The notes under the pieces: model-generated
Database searches by the model: none
Told to the model about the DNA's origin: nothing
The model's input: the letters and a program-made list of their open reading frames with translations, nothing else
Shown: piece by piece, positions 20,075 to 48,019 of the stretch
Position numbering within the stretch: the stretch's first letter is position 1
How the letters are laid out: every line of letters begins with the position of its first letter
IMG/VR virus record: IMGVR_UViG_3300035698_025300
Direction: 5' to 3' (one strand)
From: a virus
Length of the DNA stretch: 64,000 nucleotides
Position numbers and translations under genes: made by a program

Positions 20075-20169
20075 CTCCCTAGCTAGGACTCGAACCTAGA
20101 ACCTGCTGGTTATTTATTGCGCTATTTAACGCATACAGCCAGCCGCTCTACCAATTAAGATACTAGGGA
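20075..20169 (-). tRNA. tRNA-Asn(GTT) with a 22-nt intron in the anticodon loop
   Basis: U1-A72, G73; removing 20113-20134 gives loop CTGTTAA. Confidence 0.75.
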
Positions 20170-20175
20170 ATAAGA

Positions 20176-20266
20176 CTCCAGGGGGAGGACTCGAACCTCC
20201 ATACCGTTCTAGACGGATTACGTCTGATTAACAATCAGGTCACTTACCCAATTAGTGTACCCCAGA
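20176..20266 (-). tRNA. tRNA-Asn(GTT) with long variable arm
   Basis: Loop TTGTTAA, 22-nt variable region, U1-A72, G73. Confidence 0.8.
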
Positions 20267-20345
20267 ATATGTAATATTTACTTGTCATTATTTCGCACTG
20301 ATGTTTCTTTTAAACATCTTTCCAGTTTATATCCATCAAAAAAAG

Positions 20346-42574: not shown

Positions 42575-42694
42575 ATGAATACTGCAACACAACAATTTGA
42601 AGGCGTAGCTATAGTCAATAAGACTGTCTCGCAATCTTTGTATTCATCGTTATCCTATCTCTCTAGTAGTTTATCTAGTTATTGTTTGCTGTAA
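42575..42694 (+). CDS. leader peptide 3, MNTATQQFEGVAIVNKTVSQSLYSSLSYLSSSLSSYCLL
   Basis: RBS AGGA; 39 codons before the Leu/Tyr/Cys/Ser tRNA array. Confidence 0.8.
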   Translation: MNTATQQFEGVAIVNKTVSQSLYSSLSYLSSSLSSYCLL

Positions 42695-42775: not shown

Positions 42776-42852
42776 GCCCACGTAGGCAAATTGGTAAAGT
42801 CTGTTGGTTCAAAACCAGCGTAATTTTGGAGGTTCGATTCCTCTCGTGGGTA
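42776..42852 (+). tRNA. tRNA-Leu(CAA), short variable arm
   Basis: Loop TTCAAAA. Confidence 0.85.
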
Positions 42853-42857
42853 GTATC

Positions 42858-42930
42858 GCCTCGGTAGGCCAAAGGCAGAGTCAGCGGATTTAAAATCCGT
42901 ACAGTGTGGGTTCGAATCCCACCCGAGGCA
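42858..42930 (+). tRNA. tRNA-Leu(TAA), 5-nt variable loop
   Basis: Loop TTTAAAA. Confidence 0.85.
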
Positions 42931-42943
42931 TTGTAAAATAGAT

Positions 42944-43019
42944 GCCGCGTAGGCAAATTGGTAAAGTCTGTTGGTTCAAAACCAGCGTAATTTTGGAGGT
43001 TCGATTCCTCTCGCCGGTA
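42944..43019 (+). tRNA. tRNA-Leu(CAA) duplicate with altered acceptor stem
   Basis: Body identical to 42776-42852. Confidence 0.75.
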
Positions 43020-43028
43020 GTTAGATTA

Positions 43029-43117
43029 GGGTTCTGTTCCATACGGCGGTCTGTAAAACCGTTGCCTGAAAAATATGTATGGCGGTCGGGCGAGTGGTTC
43101 AACTCCTCCAGAACTCA
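43029..43117 (+). tRNA. D-armless tRNA-Tyr(GTA)-like RNA
   Basis: 8-bp acceptor, loop CTGTAAA, no D-arm, long variable arm. Confidence 0.65.
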
Positions 43118-43191
43118 TGATTCTATGAAGAGATAAATCGGCCCAGCGAAAGCGATTGTAGGTTCGATTCCTATCTTGCTCAGTAATTTTT

Positions 43192-43895: not shown

Positions 43896-45752
43896 ATGGA
43901 TAAATTATCTCAGTCTTCTGTAACATTGGAAAATGCAGTTAAAAGCGATACAGGTCAGCCAATCGTTACCATAAAAGGGAACACTTACCCCATTAGAAAA
44001 GAGCTAGGTCGTAGCGGGTTGGGATTTACTTGGTATCGTGGAGGCAATTTCTGGTGGATGTTTAAAAGTCGGTTCGATGCCAAGAAAGATTTTATACTAC
44101 CTAAAATACAATCTCTTGGTATTGATATTTCTAATTTTAAAGATGTAGACGCTTCTTCAGCAGCATCTGCAACCGACAATAGCAATCAGTCCGCATCTTC
44201 CGAGACAGCTAAAGAGTCCGATTTGACAGACAAGACAACTGTTACTGACAATTATTCGTATACTAATTTTCCCGTTAATGACAATATTTACACAACAACT
44301 ATACCGGCTTTACATCAGGGAAAAAACATTGAGTTGAAGGTTCAGTTCGGTCGTAATAGGGATGAAAAGTATAGAAAAACTATTCCTAGATATATTATAC
44401 AGATTTTTTATAAAGATATTTTGGTACGAAAGAAAGAAGGGGCTCCACCGAAAGGATCTAAGTGGACTAAGGCCGGTCCTAATTATAACGAAGATGATAT
44501 AGTTAGAAGAGTTTTAGAGGCTATCCCGTCTTGGGCAGACAATCCTAAGTCTGCTTTATATGAGCATATAGAGTACGAAGACGTAGCCGAGAATCGTGGA
44601 GCAGATTTACAGGGAGTTTTTGATACTTTATCTGAATCATTTGGAGCAGATGTTTCTGATAAATTTCCTGATAGAAGTATACGCCTAGATGTTCCTCCGT
44701 ATGAGGGGGTGGTCCCTATCAAGCTAGATCCTCAGTACTATAAGACTTTGAGGGGGCTTACTGTAAATCTGTTGACTAATGTGGATCATAGATTGGCTCC
44801 AAGGCCAGGAAAACTCGCTAGAATAGACATACCAGTTACTGAGGGGACTATTTCAGATGTTCTTAGGTATGTAGACGATTATATTTTACAGAACCAGCAG
44901 AAAATAAAAGAATCATATTTAGAATATTTAAAGTCTTTCGCTTATACAAAAGAGCAGGAAGAGCAATTTTCTTCAGAGTTTGGGGAAGTTTTAGACAGAA
45001 TTGTAAATAATAACGTTGATGTATCTTTCTTTAAGAGGCAATTACTTGAGCTTGGTTTTATTCGGCCAAGCAAACGGCAGAAGGCCACTGGTCCAGGCGT
45101 GGCTCCACAGGGAGCTTTTAAACTTATTATAGATGATAAAGCTATCCGTGATGCTTCTTTGAGGTGGAAGAGCGCTGATTTAAACGATCCAAAGTATATA
45201 TATGCTGCTATAGCTTACAATTTGATGCGTATTAAGCATAGGAATATTGGCTACATGCCTATTCTTTTGGACGATGCATACCGCGCTGTGGCTTCTTTGC
45301 TTAAGAGATTTTTTGATGCAAATATAACTAACCAGCAGGTTGCGTCTTTTGTTGATTCGGTTGCTAGGGGCATATTTAAAGATTTAACCGGCAGGAGTTA
45401 TCGCAGTTTTGACGAGGTATACTCTGATTTTTATTCTGGCAATTGGAACTCGGATCAACAATCTACAGAAACTGGGCAGTTTGTGGCAAATGTTAATAAC
45501 GCAGCTTTGACGGCTTTTGCAGATTTTATGACCTCCAATATGAATATAACCATAGAACAGGTGGTCACAAACCCAAAATCGGCTTATCGTAGATTCGCTT
45601 TACAACATCATCCGGACAGGGTTCCAAATGAACAGAAAGCAGAGGCCGAGAGGATCATGGCTGAAGCAAACGCTTTGTATGAGAATCTTCCAAGAGAAGT
45701 ATTTAGCTCGTCTAACTGGTATATAAAATCGAAGAGGTCTAAAAATGGCTAA
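43896..45752 (+). CDS. large protein with a C-terminal J-domain-like HPD motif
   Basis: SAYRRFALQHHPDR...AE..M...N..Y. Confidence 0.7.
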   Translation: MDKLSQSSVTLENAVKSDTGQPIVTIKGNTYPIRKELGRSGLGFTWYRGGNFWWMFKSRFDAKKDFILPKIQSLGIDISNFKDVDASSAASATDNSNQSASSETAKESDLTDKTTVTDNYSYTNFPVNDNIYTTTIPALHQGKNIELKVQFGRNRDEKYRKTIPRYIIQIFYKDILVRKKEGAPPKGSKWTKAGPNYNEDDIVRRVLEAIPSWADNPKSALYEHIEYEDVAENRGADLQGVFDTLSESFGADVSDKFPDRSIRLDVPPYEGVVPIKLDPQYYKTLRGLTVNLLTNVDHRLAPRPGKLARIDIPVTEGTISDVLRYVDDYILQNQQKIKESYLEYLKSFAYTKEQEEQFSSEFGEVLDRIVNNNVDVSFFKRQLLELGFIRPSKRQKATGPGVAPQGAFKLIIDDKAIRDASLRWKSADLNDPKYIYAAIAYNLMRIKHRNIGYMPILLDDAYRAVASLLKRFFDANITNQQVASFVDSVARGIFKDLTGRSYRSFDEVYSDFYSGNWNSDQQSTETGQFVANVNNAALTAFADFMTSNMNITIEQVVTNPKSAYRRFALQHHPDRVPNEQKAEAERIMAEANALYENLPREVFSSSNWYIKSKRSKNG

Positions 45753-46053: not shown

Positions 46054-48019
46054 GTATCTGTTCTTTAAGCTCTATAAATTTCTTGCTTAGAACGAATGGT
46101 AGTTGACTTTCTCTGTGGTCATAACCAAAGGCTCTTTTGCTTGTGACGATGATCGGAGGGGCTTGTACTCTTTTGAATACGTTATTGTTCATTTGTTTCA
46201 TGAACCATTCTAAATCAGTAACAAATTCTTTCGGGTCTCCAAGATTCCATCTATCATATAGTTTTTGGCTTATGTTTAGATTTTCGCATATACGGCCTTG
46301 AATATACCATTCCATTACCAATTCTGGAGCGGTGTTTTTATATGTCATGAAGATTTCTAGAAGTTGGTCGTGATAGGCAAATTTCATTGGATCAATTTGC
46401 TCATCTTTAAGCTCCGCTGATGGGGCAACTTCGAAATTAAATAGATCATCAGGTAAGAGGCTCTCTGGAATAATTTCTTCCATGAATATGTCGCTATTTA
46501 GATATCTGGCCATCTCGAAAACTTCCTCTTTGGTGAGATCTCCTAGCGGGCTAATGGCCCCACCGACATCACCGTAGAGGGTTGCATAGCCTAGCGCTGT
46601 TTCAAGTTTGTTTCCGTTGTTTGTAAACAACGCTCCCATTTTTGCGGCTATGCCGGCTAGAATTGATGAGCCTCTGGTTCTGGCGTAAATATTTTCTATA
46701 ACTAGGCTGCTGGCATCTTCGAATTGGGGGTCATAGCCAGGCCCTAATCGTAGGTTAAGTTCACCTGAATCCCATCCTCCAGCTTTATTAACGGCTATAA
46801 GTGTATCGGTTGCTACTGTTGTTATTGGGATTATGCGATATCTTATTCCCAGCTTATCTGCTATATCTTTAGCAATGTTTTTTGTAGCACTTGAGTTATA
46901 TTTGCTAGGCATATTAATTGCCATGACATTTTTTTCTCCAACGGCCTTAACAAGAAGGCACGCGACAACTGAGCTGTCTATCCCACCAGAAAGGCCAATG
47001 ACAAATTTTGGATGGTCTTTTTGTCCAATTATGTCTTTCATGTGCTGAATGCCACGTATCAATGTTAAATACTTCTCAGCTATTTTGTTATTTTTTCTTT
47101 TTCTTTGTGTCGCGCATATTATGTCAATCATTTCGGTAGAAATTACCATTAGTTTTTCTTTATATTGATCTATTACATAGTCTGCCAACTCTCCCTTTCG
47201 GTTATATACACTACTTCCTCCATCGAACGTGATGATATTTTTGCCGTTATTCTGGGCTCCCACACAGTTGACATAATAGAATTGTGGCATGGGTTTATCC
47301 AGAGGGGCTAATTCTTTGTAGAGGAACTTTATAGCGTTGTGGCGAGCTTTATCTTTACCGTAGGTCCAAGGGGATGCTGATAAATTGATGATAATGGTGG
47401 CTCCATTATTAACGGCATTTTTAGTTGGATTTTTAGCTTTTCCTTCTCGCACATAATCTTCACACCATAGATCTTCACAGAGTTCTACTCCAATTAACTC
47501 ATCTTTGAATTTGAAAGGAGCAAAGATATTAAAGCAGCCGTTTTCCCATAATTGATAAGCTGATGTGAAATATCTTTGATCGTCAAAGAATCTGTAATTA
47601 GGAAGTAGGGCTTTTACTTGTAGTCCTTTTGGGACGAATTTGGAATATTTGTCATGGCCTGATTTCTTAACAGGCTCTCCATTGTAATAGAAATAAGCAG
47701 CATTATATTTTCTAGTCCTGCCATCTTCGTTTGGGAACCAAAAGCCGGATTCATCGTGTTCGCTAAGGAAGACGTTACCGAAAATAACCCCGATTCCCAT
47801 GGACGCCTTAGCGATTTGCTCGTTAAAGCTCATAAGCCATCGGCAATATTCGTCATCATTGAATTTATCGCCAAGAAAATATCCACCTACGCACATTTCA
47901 GGGAAAGATATAAGATTTGCTCCGCGAGCTTTCGCTTCATTAATCATGCGAAGCATTTTATATACATTTTGTTGTGGCTGTCCTGAGACGACATCCATTT
48001 GACCTAGAGCAATGTTCAT
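46043..48019 (-). CDS. nadE: glutamine-dependent NAD+ synthetase
   Basis: N-terminal CN-hydrolase (FPEM, ELCEDLW, SASP) plus synthetase IGLSGGIDSS, GNKLE.ALGYATLYGD, PSAEL. Confidence 0.95.
   Translation of the reverse strand: MNIALGQMDVVSGQPQQNVYKMLRMINEAKARGANLISFPEMCVGGYFLGDKFNDDEYCRWLMSFNEQIAKASMGIGVIFGNVFLSEHDESGFWFPNEDGRTRKYNAAYFYYNGEPVKKSGHDKYSKFVPKGLQVKALLPNYRFFDDQRYFTSAYQLWENGCFNIFAPFKFKDELIGVELCEDLWCEDYVREGKAKNPTKNAVNNGATIIINLSASPWTYGKDKARHNAIKFLYKELAPLDKPMPQFYYVNCVGAQNNGKNIITFDGGSSVYNRKGELADYVIDQYKEKLMVISTEMIDIICATQRKRKNNKIAEKYLTLIRGIQHMKDIIGQKDHPKFVIGLSGGIDSSVVACLLVKAVGEKNVMAINMPSKYNSSATKNIAKDIADKLGIRYRIIPITTVATDTLIAVNKAGGWDSGELNLRLGPGYDPQFEDASSLVIENIYARTRGSSILAGIAAKMGALFTNNGNKLETALGYATLYGDVGGAISPLGDLTKEEVFEMARYLNSDIFMEEIIPESLLPDDLFNFEVAPSAELKDEQIDPMKFAYHDQLLEIFMTYKNTAPELVMEWYIQGRICENLNISQKLYDRWNLGDPKEFVTDLEWFMKQMNNNVFKRVQAPPIIVTSKRAFGYDHRESQLPFVLSKKFIELKEQILNS

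Follow-up and report, generated by a model that had tools for sequence, protein, structure and literature searches.

A conserved family of tRNA-Tyr-like genes in which a pseudoknot takes the place of the D arm

The gene and its surroundings

The window, the 64,000-nucleotide stretch of viral DNA analyzed here, appears to belong to a very large uncultured phage sampled in salt-lake metagenomes; the public sequencing runs that contain its DNA are salt-lake metagenomes only, and the runs listed for the gene region are all DNA runs, with no RNA run among them. ARAGORN called 36 tRNAs and a tmRNA, and Rfam added a few more tRNAs, giving about 40 tRNA genes. The gene under study lies at 43029–43117 in a cluster with the order Leu-Leu-(decayed Leu)-X-Cys-Ser-Ser-Cys-Ser-Ser, where X is the gene, referred to below as the rewired tRNA-Tyr. 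The two intact Leu genes, Leu-CAA (42776–42852, + strand) and Leu-TAA (42858–42930, + strand), are only 77 and 73 nt long and have short variable regions; bacterial tRNA-Leu normally carries a long variable arm. Short Leu tRNAs also accompany the rewired tRNA-Tyr in two other loci, L117 and L119. The segment at 42944–43019 (+ strand) nearly duplicates the Leu-CAA gene and has a one-base gap in its acceptor stem; it scores 33 bits with Rfam, is not called by ARAGORN, and is probably a decaying Leu copy. On the other side of the gene, 43118–43190 (+ strand) contains a T-arm-like GTAGGTTCGATTCCTAT and a 3' acceptor-like TCTTGCTCA without a matching 5' half or anticodon arm, and is probably a tRNA remnant. 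The upstream leader contains a 39-codon open reading frame (42575–42694) with the three Tyr codons reported in the first-pass annotation.

That annotation described 43029–43117 as a tRNA-Tyr without a D arm whose D-replacement stretch could pair with its variable loop, and re-reading the sequence gave the same layout. The acceptor stem has 8 bp including one G-U pair, and only 9 nt (TTCCATACG, 43037–43045) separate it from the GTA anticodon arm, a stretch in which no hairpin is possible. The hexamer CCATAC within this stretch is the exact Watson-Crick complement of GTATGG, which is held in the 16-nt loop of the long variable stem. These two strands form the X helix and the variable stem is the V stem (Table 1). 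The chance of a perfect 6-mer complement in a loop of about 16 nt is roughly 0.003 by our own arithmetic for a single sequence; the decisive evidence for the pairing comes from the comparison of 128 homologues rather than from these odds.

Table 1. Parts of the gene at 43029–43117.
Feature	Position	Strand	Remarks
Whole gene, rewired D-armless tRNA-Tyr (GUA)	43029–43117	+	89 nt including the discriminator
Acceptor stem, 5' strand GGGTTCTG	43029–43036	+	pairs with 43109–43116
UU linker from acceptor stem to long-range helix	43037–43038	+	
X helix, 5' strand CCATAC	43039–43044	+	pairs with 43077–43082; in place of the D-stem strand leading to position 26
Single G from X helix to anticodon stem	43045	+	analogue of position 26
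Anticodon arm	43046–43062	+	5-bp stem GCGGT/ACCGT (G-U at top), loop CTGTAAA
Anticodon GTA	43053–43055	+	
V stem, 5' strand TGCCTGA	43063–43069	+	pairs with 43086–43092; family core is the first 4 nt, TGCC
Loop L2, AAAATAT	43070–43076	+	A/U-rich; V stem 5' strand to X helix 3' strand
X helix, 3' strand GTATGG	43077–43082	+	within the variable-arm loop
CGG, the conserved YGG	43083–43085	+	immediately 3' of the X helix
V stem, 3' strand TCGGGCG	43086–43092	+	family core GGCG at 43089–43092
T arm	43094–43108	+	4-bp stem GTGG/CCTC, one U-U mismatch, loop TTCAACT
Acceptor stem, 3' strand CAGAACTC	43109–43116	+	
Discriminator A73	43117	+	

The acceptor and T stems are divided 8/4: the eighth acceptor pair, G43036-C43109, forms and an A43093 x C43109 pair cannot. 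The resulting 12-bp acceptor/T stack, the TΨC-type loop, U33 and the purine at 37 are features of canonical tRNAs, and the D stem-loop that a canonical tRNA has between positions 9 and 26 is absent. The bacterial tRNA-Tyr identity set is complete and consists of GUA, A43117, G43029-C43116 and a long paired variable arm, although part of the loop of that arm is engaged in the X helix. CCA is not encoded, and the same is true of the neighboring tRNAs at 42776–42852 and 42858–42930. The U-U mismatch in the T stem is common to a subgroup of family loci (L119, L120, L132 and L134) in which the T arm is identical.

Minimum free energy folding, with a z-score of −1.65, recovered three stems (acceptor, anticodon and variable) together with part of the T arm. 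Folding of a single sequence cannot represent a pseudoknot, and only the nested variable stem appears. Nearest-neighbor energies assign about −9 kcal/mol to the addition of the V stem and about −4 kcal/mol to the addition of the X helix to the rest. The variable stem was originally drawn with 7 bp (TGCCTGA/TCGGGCG); its 4-bp core is a family feature, and the outer 3 bp are specific to the window copy. Extending the V stem to 7 bp in this copy leaves 3 nt (CGG) for the crossover, so the three extra V pairs may not all form together. Seven V pairs and a contact between the GG and the T loop at the same time may be too tight.

ARAGORN made no call at 43029–43117. Rfam gave no match there even at E up to 10, and therefore none to the tRNA-mimic families either. 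Among the roughly 40 tRNA genes of the window, ARAGORN and Rfam found no other GTA anticodon, which agrees with the earlier view of this gene as the only good Tyr candidate. The caveat is a tRNA at 20075–20169 (− strand) whose anticodon loop contains a 22-nt hairpin insert: ARAGORN run with introns assigns it to Asn GTT, and excision shifted by one base would yield GTA (Tyr). Its neighbor at 20174–20267, an Asn tRNA of 94 nt, has an 8-bp acceptor stem and a long extra arm.

A covarying fold shared by the family

Viral contigs were searched with the 22-nt anticodon arm, which returned 28 loci, most of them canonical tRNA-Tyr genes with the same arm. Several of these loci have the layout of the window gene with hexamers that are different yet complementary, for example CCCTAC/GTAGGG, CCCCAC/GTGGGG and TCTCATT/AATGAGA. 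Looser patterns that left the 3' partner strands unconstrained raised the number of loci to more than 160. They comprise about 110 viral contigs of 4 to 460 kb and 55 bacterial genome records, mostly Planctomycetota, among them Lacipirellula limnantheis I41 and Schlesneria sp. T3-172, both with complete genomes; Neorhodopirellula pilleata Pla100 has two copies. The patterns fixed TTCC...C-G and the anticodon loop, and thus the breadth of the family is undersampled.

Other routes to relatives were less productive. A blastn search of the 1.1-kb tRNA cluster against cultured phages returned generic tRNA-Leu matches only, one common family member had no match in cultured phages at E 1e-3, and the 618-aa protein encoded downstream (43896–45752) led to no relatives in viral contigs. 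Relaxed blastn located copies in the cultured Pseudomonas phages SCYZ1, Rembedalsseter and Lyrsu01-03.

The family was defined by an alignment (A2) and a covariance model (R1). R1 assigns 88.5 bits to the window copy, which was in the training set, 72–73 bits to the Pseudomonas phage copies, which were outside it, and at most 26 bits to canonical tRNAs. The copy at L011:5130–5211 (− strand) scores 36 bits; its 3' part is replaced by AT-rich sequence right after the X 3' strand, and it is a truncated or interrupted family member. Throughout the family two U's are followed by a 6-nt strand, one purine and the anticodon arm, and the complement of the 6-nt strand lies within the loop of the variable arm. 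The V stem follows the anticodon stem without a gap and crosses the X helix, the YGG follows the X helix, and L2 is A/U-rich. The first-pass annotation had suggested looking for a normal D arm in homologues as a sign of recent deletion; none of them has a D arm.

The fold was examined in a MAFFT alignment that was blind to structure and comprised 128 distinct members; in it, all five helices together are 97.4% paired. The X helix (columns 11–16 x 52/54–58) is 98.2% paired and shows double changes in four of its six pairs. Its pair 13-56 is CG in 67 members, UA in 36, AU in 10 and UG in 10, and pair 14-55 is CG in 59, UA in 43, AU in 11 and GC in 8. The core of the V stem (columns 35–38 x 68–71) is 97.7% paired with double changes in three of four pairs; its pair 37-69 is CG in 84 members, UA in 22, GC in 14 and AU in 5. 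The acceptor columns are 99.5% paired and the anticodon stem 99.1%, with covariation in 8/8 and 5/5 pairs, respectively, and the acceptor, anticodon and T stems vary as they do in ordinary tRNA families. No shuffle out of 500 matched the observed pairing or covariation score, a statistic that is inflated by kinship among the sequences. Sliding the partner strand by 1–3 columns reduced pairing to 22–62%, except for the −3 slide of the V stem, which gave 85% of only 155 cells.

The filter used to collect the members had demanded five of six X pairs, and for this reason the census of the X helix was redone on 128 distinct unfiltered pattern hits. The variable region contains a perfect complement of the member's own hexamer in 119 of them and a match of at least 5/6 in 127. 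The controls gave a mean of 20 with a hexamer taken from another member and 20 with the hexamer read backwards. The family uses 26 different X hexamers. A free search for a 4-mer V partner in the last 14 nt was uninformative, with controls at 94–116 of 128, and fixed-column counts were therefore used for the V stem. The X (11–16 x 52–58) and V (35–38 x 68–71) helices interleave, which makes the structure a true pseudoknot. These data bear out the proposed pseudoknot-like substitute for the D arm, formed by pairing between the D-replacement stretch and the variable loop, with covariation in both the X helix and the V stem that it crosses, and we hold the observation and the pseudoknot reading of 43029–43117 with high confidence.

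The family has the features of a tRNA. The loop is CUGUAAA/C with GUA in all members, and GTA was the only anticodon recovered even when the pattern left the anticodon free with TGCC fixed. A73 is present in 125 of 126 aligned members and the T loop is TTCRANT in 127 of 128. The G's of the YGG after the X helix are conserved in 117/128 and 126/128 members; the search patterns left these positions free. The TT linker occurs in all 128 aligned members but was imposed by the search patterns, as was the G before the anticodon stem in the pattern-derived members; the Pseudomonas phage copies have A there. L2 is 6–12 nt long and 85% A/U. The 8/4 split is unambiguous in 109 of 128 members, CCA is encoded right after A73 in 58 of 83 distinct viral copies, and the members are full-sized RNAs of 85–92 nt. 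For the family, covariation establishes the fold, and conservation, the tRNA features and the genomic context are established with it.

Pattern searches for the same layout with GTC, GTG or GTT anticodons found none. Once G34 was excluded, a subfamily with the same layout and a TAT anticodon was recovered (L213:1163–1249, L215, L220, L222:3456–3542, L224:1040–1124 and L225:7011–7096). These copies have the loop CTTATAA or CTTATGA, an acceptor stem of the form CCGCG.../...CGCGG (C1-G72), A73 and CCA. They adjoin Lys-TTT, Glu-TTC, Arg-TCT, Thr-TGT and Leu-TAA tRNAs, that is, tRNAs for codons ending in A or U, and they are probably AUA decoders.

Genomic setting and proposed function

Of 112 viral loci, 105 have other tRNAs within 1.5 kb of the gene, as do 49 of the 55 bacterial loci. 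ARAGORN detected none of 53 isolated members and only two of 167 in their own loci, and Tyr almost never appears in its list for loci where it calls at least 15 tRNAs. Tyr is the sole isotype it leaves uncalled in six arrays of 25–39 tRNAs (L039, L044, L052, L092, L140 and L155). The rewired gene is also unannotated in the GenBank records of all five Pseudomonas phages. Since the family escapes the standard finders and GenBank annotation, those phage and array tRNA sets in which Tyr seems to be missing are probably complete, and analyses of phage codon supply are probably biased. A canonical tRNA-Tyr is also present in 14 of the 167 family loci, which means that the Tyr supply does not always rest with the rewired copy alone.

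The chromosome of L. limnantheis I41 carries an accessory array of 28 tRNAs (L212, 5955400–5961000) in which ARAGORN finds 18 isotypes and only Tyr and Cys are lacking. The rewired tRNA-Tyr lies at L212:1711–1797, chromosome positions 5957110–5957196, between Leu-CAA and Glu-CTC, and a canonical tRNA-Tyr is located 0.7 Mb from the array in this genome, the only one checked. Similar arrays of 20–39 tRNAs occur in many Planctomycetota records. The covariance model of the family had strong matches in about 6 of 151 Planctomycetota genomes sampled. This low frequency and the location in arrays indicate that the bacterial copies are accessory and array-borne, and a role as the housekeeping tRNA-Tyr of the Planctomycetota was rejected on these grounds together with the canonical gene elsewhere in L. 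limnantheis.

The cultured phages SCYZ1 and Lyrsu01 have 47-kb genomes with one Rfam-detectable tRNA each, and the rewired tRNA-Tyr is directly beside it. The two copies (SCYZ1, L227:582–667, MH518298.3; Lyrsu01, L228:584–668, PP179323.1) are of the 7/5 type; A replaces G before the anticodon stem, and the closing pair is A x C. The SCYZ1 copy, at 46804–46894 on the minus strand of MH518298.3, is just upstream of the small terminase gene. A gene of the TyrRS/TrpRS family (PF00579) was found in only one of five large phage contigs with the rewired tRNA-Tyr. A dedicated phage TyrRS as a requirement was therefore rejected, and the host enzyme would have to charge the tRNA.

We favor the reading that 43029–43117 is a working tyrosine tRNA with a rewired core, at a probability of about 0.6, and consider a function as a tyrosine decoder likely. 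The conventional parts are kept, namely the 12 stacked acceptor/T pairs (8 + 4), the T loop, the GUA arm and A73. The D hairpin is absent: the chain runs from the acceptor stem through two U's, CCATAC and one purine into the anticodon stem, as the 3' strand of a D stem does, with CCATAC and the purine corresponding approximately to D-stem positions 22–25 and 26. The second strand of the D stem would be supplied from the variable-arm loop and not from positions 10–13 after U8 and N9. The junction at the anticodon stem would have class II connectivity, with the V stem starting there and 1–2 nt leading from it to the T stem. U8 of a normal tRNA is at the far end of the D stem; here the 8-bp acceptor stem, which reaches one pair nearer the elbow, would join the far end of the X helix through UU. 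A normal tRNA has six stacked layers in this region, consisting of the 4-bp D stem and the 8-14 and 15-48 layers. The 6-bp X helix would stack on the anticodon stem and fill the space of the D stem and the two tertiary layers, which would give the L-shape. The YGG (CGG in the window copy) is a candidate stand-in for the docking of D-loop G18-G19 on the T loop, and the A/U-rich L2 could line a groove, as pseudoknot loops do.

The rewired tRNA-Tyr would be transcribed with the neighboring Leu, Cys and Ser tRNAs, its ends would be trimmed, and CCA would be added by a host enzyme. Host TyrRS would charge it through GUA, A73, G1-C72 and the long arm, and it would then read UAY for the phage. The Septu and Retron-Eco7 PtuAB nucleases block phages through cleavage of the tRNA-Tyr variable arm, and phage tRNA-Tyr genes counter this cutting, that of T5 by means of a distinctive variable loop (PMC13096335, PMC11555353). 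An arm locked in a pseudoknot is a plausible next step in the arms race. Tyr would most likely have been chosen because its variable arm is the target of the PtuAB nucleases, and a buried, knotted arm may resist them. This anti-nuclease rationale is speculative. The UAU-anticodon subfamily has the same layout, so the design is not strictly tied to Tyr, which weakens a purely Tyr-specific rationale. The combined proposal of a non-cloverleaf elongator that is accepted by RNase P, the CCA-adding enzyme, TyrRS, EF-Tu and the ribosome, and that spread because it resists PtuAB-type nucleases, is tentative and on balance doubtful.

The RNA could also be a conserved tRNA look-alike that does not decode and acts as a decoy or sponge for tRNA-Tyr nucleases or in another tRNA-shaped role. 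Such an RNA would keep the features that a nuclease reads (the GUA loop, the arm and the acceptor end) without the need to fit the ribosome, and its core is indeed unlike that of every tRNA known to work on the bacterial ribosome. Over-expression of a phage tRNA-Tyr partly suppresses the Septu-mediated loss of host tRNA-Tyr (PMC13096335). The canonical tRNA-Tyr genes in 14/167 loci, and the retention of the rewired RNA by small Pseudomonas phages with just one other tRNA, also fit this explanation. However, the rewired gene fills exactly the one missing isotype in large arrays, as a decoder would and a decoy need not. A decoy also would not need all of C32, U33, GUA, A37, A38, A73, the encoded CCA and the 12-bp branch. 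We consider a non-decoding role unlikely.

Charging and decoding could occur with an altered identity, either with another amino acid inserted at UAY or with the RNA as a poor or mischarged substrate. The D arm and core contribute to recognition by several synthetases, and the existence of the UAU-anticodon subfamily with the same layout is compatible with a change of identity. The bacterial Tyr set (GUA, A73, G1-C72 and the long arm) is nevertheless intact and conserved, and the rewired gene occupies the Tyr slot in the arrays, which makes this possibility quite improbable.

Rfam reports a tRNA at 43088–43182 that overlaps the gene and, if it were the true gene, would make the fold of 43029–43117 incidental. 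It scores 29.9 bits with RF00005, just over the gathering score of 29 bits, and has a 7-bp acceptor stem (GGGCGAG/CTTGCTC) and a good T arm (43158–43174). In place of a 17-nt anticodon arm it has 35 nt without a 7-nt anticodon loop, its fold is no better than shuffles (z −0.2), and its likeness to other tRNAs is limited to the T-arm part. It takes its apparent acceptor stem from the V stem, and its apparent D arm from the T arm, of the gene with 128 conserved homologues. This candidate was rejected as a real gene; it consists of the remnant at 43118–43190 and the 3' part of the Tyr gene, and the chance that it is the true gene is very small. A decaying pseudogene, formed by recent loss of the D arm from a canonical tRNA-Tyr, would account for the rejection of 43029–43117 by standard finders and for its decayed flanks (the Leu copy at 42944–43019 and the remnant at 43118–43190), but is excluded by the comparative data, with an identical layout in more than 160 loci of unrelated phages and bacteria, compensatory changes in every helix and 26 X hexamers.

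Comparison with known systems

The textbook view is that every tRNA on the bacterial ribosome is a cloverleaf. All known bacterial tRNAs were described as cloverleaves in a 2024 paper (PMC11551756). Full-text literature searches found no published description of a pseudoknotted, D-armless tRNA design. A review of non-canonical tRNAs does not include a phage or pseudoknot case, and a survey of viral structured RNAs describes no such fold, although some of its unnamed tRNA-like candidates might belong to the rewired family. The pseudoknotted core without a D hairpin is conserved in phages, in accessory arrays of mostly Planctomycetota and in cultured Pseudomonas phages. If the RNA is charged and read, it reveals how much of the tRNA core bacterial translation really needs, provides engineered or orthogonal tRNAs with a new natural scaffold, and may expose a structural route of phage escape from tRNA-cleaving immunity.

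Plant-virus tRNA-like structures such as that of TYMV, the tRNA-like domain of tmRNA, and YrlA resemble the rewired RNA in having an L-shape without a cloverleaf secondary structure. The pseudoknot of TYMV builds the acceptor arm, tmRNA and YrlA lack a decoding anticodon arm, and to our knowledge none of the three is an elongator tRNA.

Mitochondrial D-armless tRNAs (mammalian mt-tRNA-Ser(AGY) and those of nematodes and mites) also lack the D hairpin (PMC4013460, PMC7609411). They are about 50–65 nt long, with an unpaired replacement loop, a short variable region and co-evolved organellar machinery (PMC4013460, PMC7609411). In contrast, the gene at 43029–43117 has 89 nt, and its replacement stretch is paired with covariation; the rewired RNA rebuilds the helix by long-range pairing and must suit bacterial machinery.

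The (8/4) tRNAs and allo-tRNAs share the 12-bp 8/4 branch, the long variable arm and the location in phage tRNA clusters, and they too are missed or mis-scored by gene finders (PMC5389517). They differ in keeping a D stem-loop with a long stem and a tetraloop, and thereby a cloverleaf. The known 8/4 and 9/3 tRNAs are of Ser, His, Cys and Sec types, all retain the D arm, and they include no Tyr type and no pseudoknot (PMC5389517). The gene at 43029–43117 has the 8/4 split of this class and lacks its D stem-loop and its Ser and His identity elements.

Class II tRNA-Tyr (E. coli tyrT/tyrU, T5 and T6) has the same CUGUAAA loop, A73, G1-C72, paired variable arm and normal T loop, and canonical phage tRNA-Tyr genes (L001–L005 and others) share the identical 22-nt anticodon arm plus TGCC. 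Class II tRNA-Tyr has a 7/5 division of its acceptor and T stems, whereas the rewired family is mostly 8/4. Unlike class II tRNA-Tyr, the rewired family has no D hairpin, takes the partner of its D-position strand from the loop of the variable arm, and has a pseudoknotted core.
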